From: a virus
Virus genome (UHGV): UHGV-1956501
Reading direction: 5' to 3' (one strand)
DNA length: 10,494 nucleotides
Within the stretch, counting starts at the first letter, position 1. Each line of letters begins with the position of its first letter. Shown piece by piece: positions 1-7,301 of the stretch. Made by a program: the position numbers and the translations under genes. The notes beneath the pieces were generated by a model, which saw only the letters and a program-made list of their open reading frames with translations, did no database searches and had not been told where the DNA came from.

Positions 1-96
1 AGTATATTCTACATAAGTTAAGTATATGTACTTAGTACCATAAGTACTAGATCTTTTATTTTTTATTATTTAGTTATTTTAGTTATATTCTTTATG

Positions 97-177
97 TGTC
101 CGTATCACGGACAGTTGGTGTCCGTATTACGGACAGATGTGTCCGCGTGACGGACAGTAGTGTCCGTATCACGGACA
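97..177. repeat. Four tandem 17-bp palindromes TGTCCG-N5-CGGACA (97-113, 119-135, 140-156, 161-177), phased 21-22 bp; candidate operator/iteron array
   Basis: Read directly: TGTCCGtatcaCGGACA, TGTCCGtattaCGGACA, TGTCCGcgtgaCGGACA, TGTCCGtatcaCGGACA. Arms are perfect reverse complements; start-to-start spacing 22, 21, 21 bp (about two helical turns). Sits beside an AT-rich tract (40-95) with TAGTTAT direct repeats. Confidence 0.85.
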
Positions 178-252
178 GTTAATAGTATCTGTTCTAGAGC
201 GAACATAAAACATACGAATCCTTATAGTACAGATATTTAAGTTTTTACTGGT

Positions 253-603
253 CTAACCAGTTGTTGACATTCGAATAACCTCTTCTGGTGGCAAAACTTT
301 GGAAAATGTGCATCTTTTACCTCTCCCTTGTGTGGATATTTCAACCACTCCTGCACATTCTAAAGTTTTAACGCACGCTGCTGCTTTTGTTTTCTTTATC
401 CCAACATCTGCTGCAATTTTCCTTGTGCTGGGTGTGAAGCGTGAATTTCCTCCAAGCTTGTACCAGTTGTGCAGGTAGCAGTATACGATCTTGTCATATA
501 AGTCAAGAACAACAACCTCCCCAGTTGTGTCATTCAAAACTTTTGACATAGACAGTATTTCAAGGGGGACTTTAAGATATAGCAGCTTATCCCCATCTTT
601 CAT
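253..603 (-). CDS. Hypothetical small protein, possible helix-turn-helix DNA-binding protein
   Basis: 116-aa ORF with ATG start and AGGAG Shine-Dalgarno just upstream on the minus strand; no competing plus-strand ORF. Segment FTPSTRKIAADVGIKKTKAAACVKTLECAGVV looks HTH-like. Function is inference only. Confidence 0.55.
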   Translation of the reverse strand: MKDGDKLLYLKVPLEILSMSKVLNDTTGEVVVLDLYDKIVYCYLHNWYKLGGNSRFTPSTRKIAADVGIKKTKAAACVKTLECAGVVEISTQGRGKRCTFSKVLPPEEVIRMSTTG

Positions 604-650
604 ATCTCCTGATTCTCCTTGTGTGGCAATTTTCTTTAAAATAGCAGGGA

Positions 651-1226
651 TTACTCCCCGCTGTCAATAGCAAGACTCATTGCAATACGGTATGCCTCTT
701 CTAATGGTAAGAGTCTCCCCCACACATCCCAACCGACATCAAACTGCCTGCCAAACAACTGCTGTGTGGTTCCGTGAGCATGACCGAACAGTTGGACTGA
801 TCCGTGAGGCTTTCTGTTCCACTTTGCAAACTGGTAATGGCTCATACAGATCAAATTCTTGTTGTGGCGAAGCTCGTAATAATCTACAACCTCATGACCG
901 AACTCTTTCATAATTCTGACAGTCGTCCTTGTGTCATGGTTGCCACGAACAAGAATAATATGCCCGTTCAACATATTTAGAATATCTGGAAGTAAGTTGT
1001 TGATATTCTTATCATTAGTGCACGCAATATCTCCCAGGTGGAACACAGTGTCTGCAGGTGACACAACAGAGTTCCACTCGGTGATGATTCCCGCATTCAT
1101 ACTGTCAAGATTGTGATCATATTGAGATCTGTGTTTTTGACATGAATCAAACTCCATGACCCGCTGTTGGAGAAAGTGTGTGTCGCTTGTTACAAAGTAT
1201 TTTAATGCAGATGACCTAGTAGACAA
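651..1226 (-). CDS. Calcineurin-like metallophosphoesterase
   Basis: Ordered metallophosphoesterase motifs in the translation: SDTHF (D-x-H), HLGDIA (GD), VRGNHD (GNHD), later His, FGHAHG (GH-x-H). Longest ORF starts at TTG (1224-1226) with no in-frame ATG before motif I, so the start codon is uncertain. Confidence 0.75.
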   Translation of the reverse strand: MSTRSSALKYFVTSDTHFLQQRVMEFDSCQKHRSQYDHNLDSMNAGIITEWNSVVSPADTVFHLGDIACTNDKNINNLLPDILNMLNGHIILVRGNHDTRTTVRIMKEFGHEVVDYYELRHNKNLICMSHYQFAKWNRKPHGSVQLFGHAHGTTQQLFGRQFDVGWDVWGRLLPLEEAYRIAMSLAIDSGE

Positions 1227-2106
1227 AGGTCTTGTAACCAGTCGGTATTATCCAGATCTTGGATTAAAGATCTATAAATATGCCAGAAAAGTATTCTACA
1301 ACAATCTGTGGCATTTGTCTCCGCGTTTACTGGAGTGCCGAGGTATTGTTGTTGGCAATGAGGGGAATGTTGTGGCATGGCCTTTCACAAAAGTATTCAA
1401 CTTAGGAGAAAACTCCACCAACCTACCGGACAGTAAACTTGTTACTGCGGTAGAGAAAAAGAACGGATTCCTTGGTGTGGTGTCATCTCATAAAGGTGAA
1501 CTATTGTTCTCAACAACCGGGTCTCTTGATTCTCCATATTGTAACCTTGCAAAGGAAACCATCCAGGAGCAATGTGGTAATTTAGATCTTATCAAGAAGG
1601 TTATGGGCAATGAAAATATGACATTCATGTTTGAAATTTGTCACCCCTCAGATCCGCATATTGTTCAGGAAGATCATGGCGCATATTTGATAGGTTGCAG
1701 ATATAATGATTCTGGAATAATACTACCAGAAGCAGCTTTAGATGGGATTGCCAAATACCTTGGTGCAAAACGTCCTCACACTGTGCGTGAAATTCCGTTC
1801 AGTTATGCAAAAGAATTAGCTGCAGAAACAAGAGGTGAAGGGTATATGATTCGTAAGCCTTACTACCCTTATGATCTGCAGCTGAAGATTAAGTCTCCAT
1901 ACTATCTGGCACGGAAGGCCGTAATGAGGGGTAAAGCTTGGAAGATTTGGGATGATGATATCTTTAAACGTGTTGACGAAGAGTTTTACGGCATGGTAAA
2001 CTTCATTCGCAACAACTACACAGAGGATGTATGGAACTGCCTCCTGGAGCAGGAACGCCGTGAGATACTTGACTACTATTTCCACAACGAGGACTATATG
2101 CAATGA
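1156..2106 (+). CDS. rnlA: ATP-dependent RNA ligase, T4 Rnl1 (RnlA)-like, with short C-terminal region
   Basis: Nucleotidyltransferase motifs: motif I K-x-N-G (EKKNGFLGVV), motif IV EGYMIRK, motif V LKIKSPYY. N-terminal segments KYFNADDL, LLECRGI and KVFNLGEN match the T4 Rnl1 N-terminus as recalled from memory. ATG 1156 overlaps the divergent phosphoesterase 5' end; GTG 1180 is an alternative start. Confidence 0.75.
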   Translation: MTRCWRKCVSLVTKYFNADDLVDKGLVTSRYYPDLGLKIYKYARKVFYNNLWHLSPRLLECRGIVVGNEGNVVAWPFTKVFNLGENSTNLPDSKLVTAVEKKNGFLGVVSSHKGELLFSTTGSLDSPYCNLAKETIQEQCGNLDLIKKVMGNENMTFMFEICHPSDPHIVQEDHGAYLIGCRYNDSGIILPEAALDGIAKYLGAKRPHTVREIPFSYAKELAAETRGEGYMIRKPYYPYDLQLKIKSPYYLARKAVMRGKAWKIWDDDIFKRVDEEFYGMVNFIRNNYTEDVWNCLLEQERREILDYYFHNEDYMQ

Positions 2107-2453
2107 AGAAGTTGATTGTGTGGCTGGATGACTTGAGAGACCCGTCAAATTATGGGCTCCCAGACGCTATTTGGCTAAAGAATTCCTCCGAGTTTATGGA
2201 TTTTATTAACGATAATAGAAAGCTCTACAGACGCGTTTCTGAGTGGCATATGGACAACGACCTTGGAGAGGTATTAGAAGGGTACGATTGCCTATCTATG
2301 TTGGAGGAAAAATTTGTATTTGGTAAGCCTCCTGTAGTTGACAACGTGAAGATTTTCGTGCATACTTCTAACCCATCAGCTGCTCGTAAATTCATGCTTG
2401 CAGCTGACTCGTTTAAAAAGTTTGGAATAGAGATTAAACAAAACATCTACTGA
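2103..2453 (+). CDS. Hypothetical protein (116 aa); possible CheY-like receiver / flavodoxin-like fold
   Basis: ATG overlaps the upstream stop (ATGA, 2103-2106), suggesting translational coupling. Acidic residues and a Thr/Lys pair at CheY-like spacing (D9 D10, D51/D53, T88, K105/K106); fold assignment is speculative. Confidence 0.6.
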   Translation: MKKLIVWLDDLRDPSNYGLPDAIWLKNSSEFMDFINDNRKLYRRVSEWHMDNDLGEVLEGYDCLSMLEEKFVFGKPPVVDNVKIFVHTSNPSAARKFMLAADSFKKFGIEIKQNIY

Positions 2454-2461
2454 GGACACTT

Positions 2462-3223
2462 ATGCGACGACTTATTATTATCTCCGGTGCTGGTTTGAGC
2501 GCTGAATCTGGTATTCCCACTTTCCGATCTGGTAGCACTGCAATGTGGGAGAATTTCAGCATCGATGAGGTGTGCAACATTCACACCTTTGCCAAGAACT
2601 ACTATAAGGTGCATGACTTTTACAATGCACGTCGTGTAGCTCTAGGCAGTGTTGAGCCTAACCTTGCACATCTTCGGATCGCTGAGTGGTATTCCCGCTG
2701 GTCTGGTCGTGTGATCAACATTACCACCAATGTGGATGATTTGCTGGAGCGTGCTGGTGTAAAACATGAAGATATTTTACATGTCCACGGGTATTTGCCA
2801 GAAATAGTCTATGAGGACGATGAAGGAAGTAACGTCATTAAGGACATTGGATACTCTGAGGTAGATGCAGAAAAGTATACCTGGGTTAAGCCTAATGTGG
2901 TGTTCTTCGGAGAAGTAGCTCCGAAGTATACAGACATGTACGACCTGTTGACTTCCCTTACGAGTAATGATATGGTTATCCTTGTAGGGTGTTCCAACAC
3001 AGTTATCAATTTTAACTGGGAGCTATTCCCTGCCTGCAATAAGGGAACCAAGCTGCTGATCGTTAACAAATACGACTCACAGCATCTAGAGGAGAATGGC
3101 ATTTCACGTAGTGATATTTACCAATATGAGGATCGCGGCATCCCAGTTTGGTTTAACGGGGCGGTTGATGCTTTCTCTGATAAAACATTCATTGAGACCG
3201 TAGAAAACTTTATGGAACTTTAA
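2462..3223 (+). CDS. Sir2-family protein (sirtuin-like NAD-dependent deacylase / ADP-ribosyltransferase / NADase), no zinc ribbon
   Basis: Sirtuin Rossmann motifs: ISGAGLSAESGIPTFRS (GAG-x-S-x-x-SGIP-x-FR), ITTNVDDL (TQN-x-D-x-L-like), LHVHG (catalytic His-Gly), VVFFGE (FGE), ILVGCSNTV. No CxxC...CxxC zinc-binding module is present. Confidence 0.85.
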   Translation: MRRLIIISGAGLSAESGIPTFRSGSTAMWENFSIDEVCNIHTFAKNYYKVHDFYNARRVALGSVEPNLAHLRIAEWYSRWSGRVINITTNVDDLLERAGVKHEDILHVHGYLPEIVYEDDEGSNVIKDIGYSEVDAEKYTWVKPNVVFFGEVAPKYTDMYDLLTSLTSNDMVILVGCSNTVINFNWELFPACNKGTKLLIVNKYDSQHLEENGISRSDIYQYEDRGIPVWFNGAVDAFSDKTFIETVENFMEL

Positions 3224-3236
3224 AAGGAGACCTTTA

Positions 3237-3950
3237 ATGCTGAATACCAAATTAATTGACAACCTGGAAAAACTGTCCCAACCTGAAAACTACCTTTGGT
3301 CTGCCAACTGGGTGGAAAACTGGAACCGTGTGGCAGCTAAAGTGAAAAAATCATACACACCATTCGAATTACAGCTTAGCTTCATTGAGGAAGAGTTCAA
3401 TGAAGTTTTGGAAGAGCTGGAGAAAGGTGATGGTGGAGATCACCTGCTAAAAGAGGCCTGCGATCTTCACGTTGTCACAAGTTATGCCGCTTATCTTGTT
3501 AATGATAATCACGAAAAGTGGTCAAACCTGTTTGATAATCCACGAGGCCTTAAGTTCAAGATCGGTGAGTTCTATGATACCCTGATCGCTGCGAAAAACA
3601 CCTCCAAGCAAAAAGCGTCCGCTTACCGCTTAGCAGAGTTGTCAACAGCTTTGCTGTTCCAGCTTCGCGGCGATGTGTGCGGGATGATGCGTAAGGTTCT
3701 CAAATCGAATGACAGCAAGTTTGCACGGGTCAACCATCTACGGTATTCACACGGTGCCAGTGCAGATATGCCTGCTGAACAACTCATCGAGTTGGAGATT
3801 AAAGATCTTGAGCGGCGCTTTGATGGTCGATATGAAGGTTTTGTTGCTAAGGAAGAATTCTACAACGGTAATAAAGTTATCATATTCCTTGACAGTAAAG
3901 GTAAGATCATGAAGCCTTCGAGCTTCAAGGATGTAACAGAGTATATTTAA
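3237..3950 (+). CDS. Hypothetical protein; possible all-alpha NTP pyrophosphohydrolase (MazG/HisE-like) N-terminal domain
   Basis: AGGAG Shine-Dalgarno (3225-3229) before ATG 3237. Acidic helix pattern SFIEEEFNEVLEELEKGDGGDHLLKEACDLHVV resembles the E-x-x-E...E-x-x-D metal-binding helices of MazG-like enzymes; assignment is tentative. Confidence 0.5.
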   Translation: MLNTKLIDNLEKLSQPENYLWSANWVENWNRVAAKVKKSYTPFELQLSFIEEEFNEVLEELEKGDGGDHLLKEACDLHVVTSYAAYLVNDNHEKWSNLFDNPRGLKFKIGEFYDTLIAAKNTSKQKASAYRLAELSTALLFQLRGDVCGMMRKVLKSNDSKFARVNHLRYSHGASADMPAEQLIELEIKDLERRFDGRYEGFVAKEEFYNGNKVIIFLDSKGKIMKPSSFKDVTEYI

Positions 3951-3956
3951 CAACAT

Positions 3957-3985
3957 AGCCGGGATTACCCGGCTTTACTTGTTGT
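3957..3985 (+). terminator. Putative rho-independent terminator
   Basis: GC-rich hairpin AGCCGGG-atta-CCCGGCT (7-bp stem, 4-nt loop, 3957-3974) followed by T-rich TTACTTGTTGT, directly after the 3237..3950 stop. Confidence 0.5.
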
Positions 3986-4013
3986 GGAAAGTATGCAAGT
4001 GAGGAAGATAGTT

Positions 4014-4322
4014 ATGTACAAGCACTCTAGAGATCTTGAAAACGATGCTGTGTTTGGGGATCAGATGAAAGAGTTGGTTAAACTCATAGGCAGGATAGAG
4101 GATAAGTTTGACACTAAAATCTACATCGACAGCAAAGTATTCAACCACAAAATATGGACAAATCTGTGTGTTGGACTACATGGAGATAAAGATGTGGTAA
4201 ATTTAGTTGTAATTAAGTTCATAGTGTGGCAGAATAAAACTATAAATTATTACGATCCACACCTACTTGTTTACCCGATAAAAGACCTATTAGATAAGGA
4301 GGACTGCAATGCCGTTATTTAA
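4014..4322 (+). CDS. Hypothetical protein
   Basis: Longest ORF starts at GTG 3984; in-frame ATGs at 3993 and 4014. ATG 4014 has the best Shine-Dalgarno (GAGGAAG, 4001-4007). No recognisable motifs. Confidence 0.45.
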   Translation: MYKHSRDLENDAVFGDQMKELVKLIGRIEDKFDTKIYIDSKVFNHKIWTNLCVGLHGDKDVVNLVVIKFIVWQNKTINYYDPHLLVYPIKDLLDKEDCNAVI

Positions 4323-4578
4323 TCTTGCTAAACCTGTAGAAGCACACCAGTTTGACGGAAGCTCTTCATCAGTATCTGATCTGCAACGGTGGATTGATAC
4401 AGGTGTGTTTACATCGTCACCTGTTCGGACCAGAGATCTTCGTCGCATGTGTGAGCTTGTAGAGCCGTTTGGTAACCTAGTCTTGTACCAGGGAGATTGG
4501 TTAGTTGACTTTATGGGAGACTGGTTGGTAATGAGTAAAGAAGAGATGTTTAAAATTTTTAAGGAAGAGGCCGAGTAA
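4309..4578 (+). CDS. Hypothetical protein (89 aa)
   Basis: Strong Shine-Dalgarno AAGGAGG (4296-4302) 6 nt before ATG 4309; stop overlaps the downstream start (TAATG). No recognisable motifs. Confidence 0.55.
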   Translation: MPLFNLAKPVEAHQFDGSSSSVSDLQRWIDTGVFTSSPVRTRDLRRMCELVEPFGNLVLYQGDWLVDFMGDWLVMSKEEMFKIFKEEAE

Positions 4579-5861
4579 TGCATCAAATCAAAACAACACT
4601 GTACGCACTGAATAAAGATGGCAGCTACCAACAGTGGAAAGTATTCACGGATGGTGATAAGGTTATCGTAGAGTTTGGCAAGCTTGATGGTAAACTGCAA
4701 TACAAAGAGACGATCTGCACACCTAAGAACGTTGGTCGCGCCAATGAAACTACAGCTGAGCAACAGGCCGAGCTGGAAGCGATCAGTAAGTGGGAAAAAC
4801 AGGTCCGACTTGGGTACGTGGAGAGTATGGAAGATTGTGAGCAAGGTGTTGATCTTCTACCCATGTTGGTGCATGACTACCTGAAGCGTGGCAAGGCACT
4901 TAAATTACCTTGCTGGATCTTGCGTAAGTTAGATGGCCTTCGTCTACTTGTTGTTTTCCAGAATGGTGAGCCTAAATTTATTTCCCGTGGTAATAAGTCC
5001 TACCCTATTCAAGGAAAGCTTCTGGAGCAACTTCGCTCTTTCCACCTAACCACCGGGATTAAACAGCTCGACGGAGAGCTCTATATTCATGGTCTTCCTC
5101 TGCAGAAAATAGTGTCTCTTGCTAAACGGTGGCGCACACAGGAAGAAATTCAGGCCGAGATCGATAAAGACTACAAGGCAGATAAAAAACGCCGTCAGGC
5201 TGCGATTAAGGCAGGTTTAGCAACATACAAAAACTTCAACAAGATGGACATTCCTGTTGATGTTGAGCCTGTTCGTGATGATTTGCGTTACGGAGGGTAC
5301 TGCAGCTACGATCTGGAGTATCACATTTTTGATATTCCTAGCGACAAGGTGTGGTGGGATCCAGAAACAGAGTCTGGACGCTGCAAGGATCTTATGGATG
5401 CAGAGGATACCGTTACCACTCTGATGCTTGACCATATCAAGGTTGTTGACGCAGAGCTTGCGTACACAGTTGATCATTGCGAAGAATCTGTTGGTATATT
5501 CATGTCCGAAGGATATGAAGGTACTATCATGCGTAATTTCTGCGGTAAATACGAGTACGGTCAGCGAACATCTGAAGCATTGAAATGGAAAAAGTTCAAC
5601 GACGCAGAGGTGAAAGTTATTGACGTTGAGAAAGATAAGAATGACGAAGGTGTTCTTATCTGTGTTGACAAGGAAGGTGTTGTTGTTAAAATGAAGATGA
5701 AAGGTACGCACGAGGAGCGTAGCTATGACAGGATGCAGGAAATGATCGGAAAGTTCGTCACCTTCAAATATCAAGCAAGGACAGAAGACAACAACTACCA
5801 ATTCCCTGTCGGTATCTGCGTCCGAAATGTTAACCCAGATACTTGGGAGGTTCTGGAATGA
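4578..5861 (+). CDS. ATP-dependent DNA ligase with about 115-aa N-terminal extension
   Basis: Covalent nucleotidyltransferase motifs in order: motif I ILRKLDGLRLLVV (K-x-D-G-x-R) with downstream ISRGNK, motif III LDGELYIHG, motif IV EGTIMRN, motif V LKWKKF, C-terminal OB-like region. ATG overlaps upstream stop (TAATG). Confidence 0.8.
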   Translation: MHQIKTTLYALNKDGSYQQWKVFTDGDKVIVEFGKLDGKLQYKETICTPKNVGRANETTAEQQAELEAISKWEKQVRLGYVESMEDCEQGVDLLPMLVHDYLKRGKALKLPCWILRKLDGLRLLVVFQNGEPKFISRGNKSYPIQGKLLEQLRSFHLTTGIKQLDGELYIHGLPLQKIVSLAKRWRTQEEIQAEIDKDYKADKKRRQAAIKAGLATYKNFNKMDIPVDVEPVRDDLRYGGYCSYDLEYHIFDIPSDKVWWDPETESGRCKDLMDAEDTVTTLMLDHIKVVDAELAYTVDHCEESVGIFMSEGYEGTIMRNFCGKYEYGQRTSEALKWKKFNDAEVKVIDVEKDKNDEGVLICVDKEGVVVKMKMKGTHEERSYDRMQEMIGKFVTFKYQARTEDNNYQFPVGICVRNVNPDTWEVLE

Positions 5862-5987
5862 TGTAGGAAGGTTTAGTAGGTAACGGTAGCCAATTGAATG
5901 ATGGTTTTTCAAAATTGTCACCTATATAACCACACTATGCAGTGTTGTTGATCTGGTTAATTATGAGTAAACTGGAGAGTATGAAAA

Positions 5988-6485
5988 ATGAAACTTGATA
6001 AAAATGTTCAACGAAAAGCTTTCTTGGATCTTATTGGCTGGGCAGAGGGAACAACAACCCCCCCTGCCACCAAATGTGGAGGATACGATGTTGTAGCATA
6101 CGGGATGGACGGAAAACCTGAAATCTTTACAGATTTTTCTACGCACCCTTTTGCAAACGGTCGCCCTGGTAAAGTGTTTAACTCAAAAGGGCAAAGAACT
6201 ACAGCCTGCGGTAAATATCAATTTCTTGTCAAATACTGGGAACACTACAAAAAACAGCTTAAGTTGCCGGATTTTGGACCAGACAGTCAGGATAAGTGGG
6301 CGATCCAGTTGATCAGGGAACGTAAAGCACTTGAAGATATAGATAACGGTCATATTAAATCTGCTATACGTAAGACCTCAAATATTTGGGCTTCGTTCCC
6401 CTACAACCAGTACGACCAAAATCCAAAAACCATTGACAAGTTGCTTAAGAAATTTGTAGAGTTTGGAGGTGTTGTTCTGGATTAA
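5988..6485 (+). CDS. Endolysin, lambda R-type lytic transglycosylase
   Basis: Near-collinear matches to lambda R as recalled: QRKAFLD, GWAEGT, GYDV, FTDFS-HP, GKYQF, YWEHYKKQLKLPDFGPDSQD, IRERKAL, SNIWASFP, FGG. GGAGA Shine-Dalgarno 8 nt before ATG. Confidence 0.9.
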   Translation: MKLDKNVQRKAFLDLIGWAEGTTTPPATKCGGYDVVAYGMDGKPEIFTDFSTHPFANGRPGKVFNSKGQRTTACGKYQFLVKYWEHYKKQLKLPDFGPDSQDKWAIQLIRERKALEDIDNGHIKSAIRKTSNIWASFPYNQYDQNPKTIDKLLKKFVEFGGVVLD

Positions 6486-6492
6486 TGATTAA

Positions 6493-6515
6493 AAGGTAGG
6501 CCACTCGCCTACCTT
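6493..6515. other. Stem-loop (9-bp stem AAGGTAGGC / GCCTACCTT, loop CACTC) after the endolysin stop
   Basis: Read directly. On the plus strand it is not followed by a U-tract; the A-run before it would give a U-tract on the minus strand. Possible weak or bidirectional terminator or RNA-processing site. Confidence 0.25.
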
Positions 6516-6539
6516 GCTACACCAGAGGTGTGTTGAGAT

Positions 6540-7301
6540 ATGACGATACATTTCTTTTTCAATGATCACTACCCTTATTGGTACAAGGATGGTGATCTAA
6601 TCTTTTGGAAACCTGGCTGCAGTAGGAATGGAAATAGGGCTGGACACTACAACAAAAAGACTGGATATTTCCAAGTGTACAATAAGCTGACAAATGTTAA
6701 ACGTGGCAGACATAGGGAAATTTTTGACATGTTTTACGGATGTGTCACAGATACTTGGCATATTGATCATATTATCTCTAAGAAAAATTCTACTAACGGA
6801 GTGCCTGTAGACAAGATAGAAAACCTTCAAATGTTGAAGCCTTGGGATAACTACTGTAAGAGAGCCTTGGAAAATGTGCAAAGCAATAACACCTCTACAG
6901 TGACTGGTGTGGTATGGCTGAAAAGAGAGGGTAAGTGGAGGGCAAGTAGAAGGATAAATAGGGTAAATGTTAGGTTGGGAGATTTTGACACTTTCGAAGA
7001 GGCTAAGTCTAGGGTTGAATGGTCAATAGCCAACCCGGAAGAGGCTTTAAAGATAGTTCCAAACCCGCACAAGAATAATATCCTGCCAGGTATTGATTGG
7101 TCTAAGAAAGATACCTGTTGGAGGGCACGAGATAACAAAGGAAGAAACTTAAGGTGCTTCAACGACAGGAAGTGGCTAAACCCCTGGTGGGAGGCAGTTT
7201 GTGCAAGAAAGTCTTGGGAAGTAAACTGTCTCTACGGAGGAATGTCACTAACTGAGTGGAAGTTATCCAGAGGCTATCCAAGACCTTGTGTTGAGGATTG
7301 A
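6540..7301 (+). CDS. HNH homing endonuclease with AP2-type DNA-binding domain (free-standing)
   Basis: HNH core WHIDHIISKKNSTNGVPVDKIENLQMLKPWDN (H...N...N). Downstream AP2-like segment TGVVWLKREGKWRASRRINRVNVRLGDFDTFEEAKSRV. Inserted between endolysin and the next lysis-region gene, typical of mobile phage homing endonucleases. Confidence 0.85.
   Translation: MTIHFFFNDHYPYWYKDGDLIFWKPGCSRNGNRAGHYNKKTGYFQVYNKLTNVKRGRHREIFDMFYGCVTDTWHIDHIISKKNSTNGVPVDKIENLQMLKPWDNYCKRALENVQSNNTSTVTGVVWLKREGKWRASRRINRVNVRLGDFDTFEEAKSRVEWSIANPEEALKIVPNPHKNNILPGIDWSKKDTCWRARDNKGRNLRCFNDRKWLNPWWEAVCARKSWEVNCLYGGMSLTEWKLSRGYPRPCVED

Follow-up and report, generated by a model that had tools for sequence, protein, structure and literature searches.

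A divergent sirtuin in a predicted NAD-dependent RNA-repair gene cluster of an rV5-like phage, and a 545-bp deletion in that cluster

Why would a lytic phage place a sirtuin gene in tight array behind an RNA ligase gene? The question is raised by the virus genome UHGV-1956501, a stretch of 10,494 nucleotides (hereafter the window) whose plus strand carries open reading frames (ORFs) for an RNA ligase (1156–2106), a protein of 116 amino acids (aa) (2103–2453), a Sir2 protein (2462–3223) and a 237-aa protein (3237–3950). Nucleotide identity of 95–97% to more than 120 Vequintavirus (rV5-like) genomes, including Shigella phage CM1 and Escherichia phages slur16 and V5, confirmed that the window is a segment of a Vequintavirus phage of E. 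coli. Depositors have labelled the four genes "RNA ligase", "hypothetical protein", "Sir2 (NAD-dependent deacetylase)" and "nucleotide pyrophosphohydrolase". A preliminary description of the locus had stated that the function of the Sir2 protein cannot be deduced from sequence. A specific contextual prediction for this phage group is in print: Iyer, Burroughs, Anantharaman and Aravind (2022, Viruses 14:1977, PMC9503650, section 3.7.3) described a type 2 sirtuin-centred phage RNA-repair neighbourhood, with Escherichia phage V5 and Proteus phage Mydo as prototypes. The gene cluster is thus real and not new: that 2022 paper presented it as a predicted tRNA-repair system that depends on NAD. Annotators label the sirtuin gene as a matter of routine, and both its neighbourhood and its proposed role were already in print for this phage group, so that finding it again adds little; what is new here is a 545-bp deletion in this genome.

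The four genes look like a single transcription unit, because the stop codon of the RNA ligase and the start of the 116-aa ORF overlap as ATGA (2103–2106), the two following gaps measure 8 nt (2454–2461) and 13 nt (3224–3236), Shine-Dalgarno-like sites are present (GAGGA at 2089, before the 116-aa ORF; GAGGA at 2452; AAGGAG at 3224), and a hairpin resembling an intrinsic terminator directly follows the 237-aa gene. This hairpin (3957–3974, plus strand), with a 7-bp stem of which six pairs are G-C and a T-rich tail, likely marks the end of the unit. The ATGA overlap suggests that the 116-aa protein is translationally coupled to the RNA ligase. The ORF coordinates, overlap, short gaps and tight coupling to the ligase were all as the preliminary description had given them; its AGGAG sites exist as Shine-Dalgarno-like sites, the literal AGGAG occurring at 3224 only and the others reading GAGGA.

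The Sir2 protein (253 aa; 2462–3223, plus strand) matched the Pfam family SIR2 (PF02146) with 97.7 bits (threshold 24; E=1e-27). In an alignment of 31 homologues, 50–96% identical to the window protein, residues G9-A10-G11, S16, G17, F21, R22, N90, D92 and H109-G110 were invariant, and the NAD+-binding GAGxS motif, the N and D of (T)QNxD and the catalytic His aligned with their counterparts in CobB. Throughout the clade, no Cys or His was found between H109 and K143, the region that holds the zinc cysteines of CobB; in the alignment, these cysteines pair with Y, E, D, A and K. The preliminary description was therefore correct that the protein has NAD-binding motifs and no Cys4 zinc module. Because the AF2 model (pLDDT 89.6) predicts that three beta-strands (110–118, 124–128 and 142–146) persist in the zinc segment, the protein appears to have lost the zinc ligands rather than the entire small module.

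We then placed the protein among known sirtuins. The top sequence matches among solved structures were E. coli CobB (1s5p, 2e-21), SIRT5 and Sir2-Af1, with about 27% identity to CobB and SIRT5. Foldseek likewise ranked CobB, Sir2-Af1 and SIRT5 first (TM up to 0.86), and its top 50 also contained Sir2-Af2 and SIRT2 and none of the ThsA, DSR2 or SirTM structures. The NCBIfam matches were all to "NAD-dependent protein deacylase" models, at less than half of the CobB equivalog and subfamily cut-offs (124.6 vs 243 bits; 106.6 vs 320 bits), and on these scores we rejected an ordinary CobB identity. The GTSxxVxP substrate-channel motif of sirtuins is replaced in the clade by an invariant G-x-S-N-x-V-I-N-F. 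A defence-type Sir2 was also rejected: a PADLOC scan gave no significant match (only PDC-S65, E=0.0047 over 33 residues), and Pfam and PHROG scans of the window genes neighbouring Sir2 revealed no Macro, SLOG, TIR, HerA or pAgo partner. By sequence and modelled fold, then, the protein is a divergent class III-like sirtuin and not a defence-type NADase. The resemblance to NADase-type or ADP-ribosylating Sir2 proteins over deacetylases, put forward in the preliminary description, did not hold up, either in these searches or in the Foldseek placement that it had proposed; RNA targets, one of the options it had listed, survive as a candidate.

The proteins encoded around Sir2 point towards RNA ends. 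The 116-aa protein (2103–2453, plus strand), which had been taken for an unknown, matched Pfam cREC_REC (PF20274) above threshold (55 bits vs 27; E=1.3e-14), identifying it as a cREC (cyclic-phosphate-processing receiver-like) domain protein. Its receiver-type Asp/Ser-Thr/Lys set (D9, D10, D51, D53, S89 and K96) is invariant in five diverse homologues; position 88 is Thr, with Ser in one of the five sequences. The domain was named, and its role predicted, in a 2021 jumbo-phage paper (PMC7824862), and its cyclic-phosphate phosphodiesterase activity is a prediction in the literature (PMC9503650, PMC7824862). The ATP-dependent RNA ligase (1180–2106 of the ORF that opens at 1156, plus strand) matched Pfam RNA_lig_T4_1 (54.7 bits, threshold 28.3; 1.6e-14) and phrog_562 (8.7e-66); its score against the NCBIfam equivalog TIGR02308 fell far below the cut-off (37.6 vs 242 bits; 1.3e-9), marking it as a divergent member of the Rnl1 (T4 RnlA-like) family. 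Upstream and on the minus strand, a divergently oriented gene (651–1226) encodes a calcineurin-like metallophosphoesterase (Pfam Metallophos 2.5e-6 and Metallophos_2 3.4e-6; phrog_547 1.7e-50; 1xm7 2.2e-10), a candidate enzyme for healing 2',3'-cyclic or 3'-phosphate ends. Relatives of the phage further encode a 136-aa P-loop kinase of the AAA_33 family (Pfam 2e-9). Single-sequence PDB searches with the kinase and with the RNA ligase returned nothing useful.

What, then, might the sirtuin do among these enzymes? The published prediction is that it strips 2'-phosphates from RNA ends derived from 2',3'-cyclic phosphates, as KptA/Tpt1 does, and that cREC processes both ADP-ribose cyclic phosphates and RNA ends (PMC9503650). 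We tentatively favour the reading that rV5-type phages carry a sirtuin-centred module for healing and sealing RNA ends, with which they repair tRNAs cut by host anticodon nucleases. In this scheme, a metal-independent host RNase (the anticodon nuclease) would leave 2',3'-cyclic-phosphate and 5'-OH ends; the AAA_33 kinase would add a phosphate to the 5'-OH; cREC, the metallophosphoesterase or both would open the cyclic phosphate to a 2'-phosphate; and the Rnl1-type ligase would seal the break. The Sir2 protein would then transfer the 2'-phosphate to NAD+ in a Tpt1/KptA-like reaction, in which attack by an oxygen of the phosphate on C1'' of NAD+ displaces nicotinamide, and His109 activates the ribose 2''-OH to give 2'-OH RNA and ADP-ribose-1'',2''-cyclic phosphate. 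The latter may in turn be opened by cREC or the phosphoesterase. Of this scheme, we observed which genes are present, how they are coupled, that the active sites are intact and that RNA-end enzymes recur beside Sir2; the substrates, the order of the steps and the activity of Sir2 are what we infer.

In the established sirtuin mechanism, an oxygen nucleophile at C1'' expels nicotinamide, and attack by the His-activated 2''-OH then yields a 1'',2''-cyclic species; the proposed removal of a 2'-phosphate would fit this chemistry step by step. The case for RNA repair is built on several lines of evidence: the Rnl1 ligase, cREC and Sir2 genes appear translationally coupled and are followed by a terminator-like hairpin; the NAD-binding and catalytic residues of Sir2 are invariant in the 31 homologues; its clade adjoins RNA-end enzymes in two unrelated arrangements (see below); cREC retains the receiver-type catalytic set; Sir2 scores far below the CobB equivalog cut-offs; the published prediction has phage V5 as a prototype; and in slur16 seven tRNA genes (2899–3712 of the slur16 segment L001) are clustered 3–4 kb upstream of the module. 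One tRNA of this cluster is annotated with an undetermined four-base anticodon, "tRNA-???(atcc)". Within the window itself, tRNA and Rfam scans gave no matches.

Compared with the published type 2 sirtuin neighbourhood (PMC9503650), the locus belongs to the same phage group and has the same sirtuin, T4-like RNA ligase, cREC, MazG-superfamily protein and calcineurin-like phosphoesterase; it differs in lacking the nucleotide kinase and the promoter region, which fall in the 545-bp deletion. T4 Pnkp with Rnl1 and bacterial Pnkp/Hen1 similarly set a kinase, a phosphoesterase and an Rnl1-type ligase against anticodon nucleases. In the rV5-type module, by contrast, kinase and phosphoesterase are separate small proteins and cREC and Sir2 are added, which therefore implies an NAD+-dependent step absent from T4. 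With Tpt1/KptA, the likeness would lie only in the proposed reaction, NAD+-dependent 2'-phosphate removal, and in a context of RNA ligase and cyclic phosphodiesterase. Homology to Tpt1/KptA was rejected, as the window protein is a sirtuin by hidden Markov model and by fold (a sirtuin Rossmann fold rather than the ART-like fold of PTS_2-RNA proteins), leaving a functional analogy to an activity that is here predicted. That a sirtuin fold carries out Tpt1-like 2'-phosphate removal from RNA, or ADP-ribosylation of phosphorylated RNA ends, within a phage tRNA-repair pathway of cREC, kinase, metallophosphoesterase and Rnl1 is a possibility that we hold with a little more reserve than tRNA repair by the module as such.

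We next asked how far Sir2 and these genes travel together, using iterated profiles of the window proteins to search 76 viral-contig loci with Sir2 relatives (31–95% identity). About 12 loci, from 140–150-kb phages with Sir2 identities of 43–56%, kept the phosphoesterase, RNA ligase, kinase, DNA ligase and dUTPase-like genes, and eight of them also had cREC. Unlike in the window, the genes of these loci lie on a single strand, in the order PE-RNL-cREC-KIN-SIR2-DNALIG-...-MAZG. In three 147–149-kb phage contigs with an otherwise full module (L044, L053 and L055), the iterated profile detected no cREC within 8 kb. In 28 T5-like loci, the module genes were absent and Sir2 was directly followed by a gene of the phosphatase family HAD_SAK_2 (4e-20, 8e-18), described in its family entry as "HAD domain in Swiss Army Knife RNA repair proteins". 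Sir2 thus adjoins RNA-end-healing genes in about 40 of the 76 loci, and two independent arrangements repeat the association of its clade with RNA-end-healing enzymes.

A third lineage (three loci) retained an intact cREC-PE-DNALIG-MAZG block, with RNL and KIN in two of the three. In this lineage Sir2 lies on the same contig about 33 kb from the cREC/ligase module. Operon-level linkage of Sir2 to the ligase and cREC is thus lineage-specific, and the loci partly support the connection with RNA repair. Co-conservation of the gene set, on which the preliminary description had staked its idea, likewise held in part: the ligase, cREC, kinase and phosphoesterase set accompanies Sir2 in about 12 of the 76 loci, T5-like phages have HAD_SAK_2 instead, and one lineage keeps the two far apart. 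Two distant cREC loci (L093 and L095), which we examined for KptA in place of Sir2, had neighbours without Pfam matches.

The window departs from its relatives within the module. It lacks 545 bp of slur16 (L001 7205–7749): in blastn comparisons, window positions 1–1202 corresponded to L001 6001–7204, and positions 1195–6029 to L001 7750–12582. The breakpoints are two 8-bp direct repeats, AAGTATTT, one within the first codons of each of the two divergent genes, those for the phosphoesterase and the RNA ligase; a single copy marks the junction in the window (1195–1202). Both proteins begin M-K-Y-F. The lost segment comprises the AAA_33 kinase gene, the divergent intergenic (promoter) region, and the start codons and ribosome-binding sites of the phosphoesterase and the RNA ligase. 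In the V5 record, a promoter is annotated in the match to this region. All 119 database relatives keep the segment, spanning 854 bp where the window has 301 bp. The only other contig with the junction, the ENA metagenome scaffold L079 (KARL12-1 scaffold_840), is 100% identical to window positions 17–4921, junction included, and may derive from the same sample as the window. We consider an assembly artefact unlikely, since an 8-bp repeat is too short to collapse an assembly, with the proviso that L079 is possibly from the same sample. At 4906–5272, L079 departs from the window (after window position 4921, within the DNA ligase gene) into unrelated sequence with a minus-strand ORF of 136 aa; either the scaffold is chimeric or it represents a structural variant.

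The deletion removed the native ATG-ATG start of the RNA ligase, whose ORF now opens at ATG 1156, or at GTG 1180 with GGAGA at 1169. The native ATG and ribosome-binding site of the phosphoesterase are also gone; its possible starts are TTG 1226, or ATG 1157 with loss of the DxH metal-binding motif. Because the 5'-kinase gene and the native promoter region are deleted, the proposed repair module is probably crippled or poorly expressed in this genome. On a small scale, the variant serves as a natural experiment, showing that loss of the kinase and the native promoter region is possible in at least one of the populations sequenced.

Several observations weigh against a role in RNA repair. The natural deletion suggests that the phage can, in some settings at least, do without the module. 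By sequence and modelled fold, Sir2 is closest to class III deacylases (CobB and SIRT5), and the class III Tyr-x-x-Arg pair, Y54/R57, which in those enzymes binds the acyl carboxylate, is invariant in the clade and aligns with FYHYRR of SIRT5 (Y102/R105); under the proposed mechanism, this anion site could hold a neighbouring phosphate. The phage clade is acidic (median pI 5.16 and net charge −12; −15 for the window protein), which is unusual for an RNA-binding enzyme. The distance of about 33 kb in the third lineage counts on the same side, as do the remaining 35 or so of the 76 loci, in which the neighbours of Sir2 have no Pfam assignment, and the absence of any RNA-repair gene near the cellular relatives described below. 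A literature search on phage sirtuins, T5 Sir2 and Tpt1-like sirtuin activity found comparative genomics from the Aravind group only, and no experiments. Moreover, repair of the T4 Pnkp/Rnl1 type does not require removal of a 2'-phosphate.

A scan of bacterial and archaeal genomes found Sir2 relatives of 42–52% identity in about 20 Marinobacterium genomes, in Haliea and in others (L097–L118, with Sir2 at about 6001–6700), and these too are without zinc-ligand cysteines. In Marinobacterium, the neighbouring genes encode an amino-acid dehydrogenase, a 2-oxoacid:ferredoxin oxidoreductase, transporters and an FMN dehydrogenase, a context typical for a housekeeping deacylase. Zinc-less relatives thus occur in metabolic contexts, and zinc loss alone is therefore no sign of changed function. 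The sirtuins of Marinobacterium, throughout which genus they are conserved, and of Haliea are chromosomal; the phage clade may descend from them, or they may have been acquired from it.

On this evidence, a serious rival is a CobB/SIRT5-like role for Sir2, in which the protein, changed only by the loss of its structural zinc, would use NAD+ to deacylate lysines of host or phage proteins (as a deacetylase or desuccinylase), since its cellular relatives lie among metabolic genes and the protein is acidic. Such an enzyme might protect lysine-dependent enzymes, for example the RNA and DNA ligases encoded nearby, from acylation that would inactivate them, or it might reprogram host metabolism; its place beside the ligase would then reflect a shared block of early or middle nucleic-acid-metabolism genes and not a shared pathway. 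The sirtuin has the CobB/SIRT5 fold (TM 0.75–0.86), GAGxS, NxD, the catalytic His and the invariant FYxxRR anion-binding pair. CobB (2e-21) and SIRT5 are its top PDB sequence matches, the Foldseek top 50 are CobB, Sir2-Af1/Af2, SIRT5 and SIRT2, and every NCBIfam match is a deacylase model. Sir2 is separable from the module, as the 33-kb lineage shows, and genes for a DNA ligase and a dUTPase-like protein belong to the same block. The differences from CobB and SIRT5 tell the other way: about 27% identity, scores below half of the equivalog cut-offs, missing zinc ligands, G-x-S-N-x-V-I-N-F in place of GTSxxVxP, and a context of RNA-repair genes, with apparent translational coupling to cREC and the ligase and recurrence of the clade beside RNA-end phosphoesterases in two independent gene arrangements. 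We regard a plain deacylase role as somewhat less likely than RNA repair by the module.

It is improbable, in our estimate, that Sir2 and cREC manipulate NAD+ or ADP-ribose pools or destroy immune signalling nucleotides, whether as an NADase, an anti-Thoeris or anti-CBASS factor, or an ADP-ribosyltransferase of host proteins, a direction raised in the preliminary description. Sirtuins do consume NAD+, and cREC has been predicted to act on ADP-ribose cyclic phosphates too (PMC9503650). With the defence Sir2 NADases (ThsA, DSR1/2, SIR2-HerA and SIR2-APAZ/pAgo), the window protein shares a Sir2 fold that uses NAD+ and the lack of a zinc module; it differs in being a standalone protein of 253 aa from a lytic phage, with a deacylase-type pocket; neither sensor nor partner domains accompany it. 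None of the PADLOC models of defence Sir2 proteins gave a significant match; ThsA, DSR and SirTM were absent from the top 50 fold matches; and no gene for a Macro, SLOG, TIR or HerA partner is present. Across the clade the catalytic His and a pocket of the deacylase type persist, and depletion of NAD+ would hurt the phage's own replication. In L117, a phage-like contig of a Bacilli metagenome-assembled genome with endonuclease VII and NrdD genes nearby, a NAMPT gene (4086–5528) stands two genes upstream of a Sir2 homologue (5989–6723), about 460 bp away, pairing nicotinamide salvage with nicotinamide release. Such a pairing lends something to manipulation of NAD+ pools; it fits any nicotinamide-releasing reaction.

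Equally improbable is a neighbourhood of four functionally unlinked genes that adjoin by synteny only, with tight spacing that is typical phage packing: phage genomes are dense and 4-nt overlaps common in them, gene order varies by lineage, Sir2 can be separated by 33 kb, and the L044, L053 and L055 modules lack cREC, yet the genes co-occur in genomes down to 43% Sir2 identity despite rearrangement, and Sir2 is independently paired with HAD_SAK_2 in 28 loci.

Were the predicted activity of Sir2 to prove true, removal of RNA 2'-phosphates would join the sirtuin repertoire as a new biochemical activity, and phages would be found to possess a healing-and-sealing route of the fungal and plant style that passes through a 2'-phosphate. 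It would also provide the first demonstrated function for a cREC domain, and explain why some 2% of the phages with sequenced genomes, among them T5-like and rV5-like ones applied in therapy and biocontrol, have a Sir2. Our tblastn search found Sir2 relatives in 983 of 50,697 phage records, mostly labelled "Sir2 NAD-dependent deacetylase". As the idea is already published as a prediction, novelty would lie in the demonstration.

The last gene of the unit (3237–3950, plus strand) encodes a 237-aa protein of the all-alpha NTP pyrophosphohydrolase superfamily, dimeric-dUTPase-like and extended at its C-terminus by about 80 aa. It has the all-alpha fold common to members of the superfamily and an acidic EExxE...D metal-binding motif. 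It reached the threshold of neither Pfam MazG nor PRA-PH (PRA-PH E=0.074, 13.9 vs 21.3 bits), and a PDB profile search with it found nothing. The protein folds like dimeric dUTPases, and the "MazG-like" label of the preliminary description is apt at the superfamily level only. An ATP-dependent DNA ligase gene (4578–5861, plus strand; Pfam DNA_ligase_A_M and OB_2) is syntenic, in each of the three lineages of phages that we compared, with the module and with the dUTPase-like gene. Across the loci, in a departure from the published neighbourhood, the dUTPase-like (MazG-like) gene tracks the DNA ligase gene and not Sir2, which can lie about 33 kb from the module. A role in dNTP sanitation, together with the DNA ligase, is more probable for the dUTPase-like protein.

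Downstream of the terminator-like hairpin, a 112-aa ORF (3984–4322) has its probable start at ATG 4014, preceded by GAGGA at 4001, a start that yields the protein of 102 aa found in the slur16 and CM1 annotations. This protein and the next one, of 89 aa, have no recognised domains and accompany the module in Mydo-like phages. Farther on, about 1.27 kb of the window (6030–7294), present in CM1, stands where slur16 has about 0.42 kb; it contains an ORF (6540–7301, 253 aa) with a weak match to the AP2 domain. Lying between the endolysin gene and the downstream genes, this segment looks like a mobile insertion of the homing-endonuclease type. Finally, about 20 GenBank records of "Campylobacter phage" (within MG065635–MG065690, host C. 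jejuni) are 95–97% identical to E. coli rV5-like phages over the whole window, and their assignment to C. jejuni seems doubtful.

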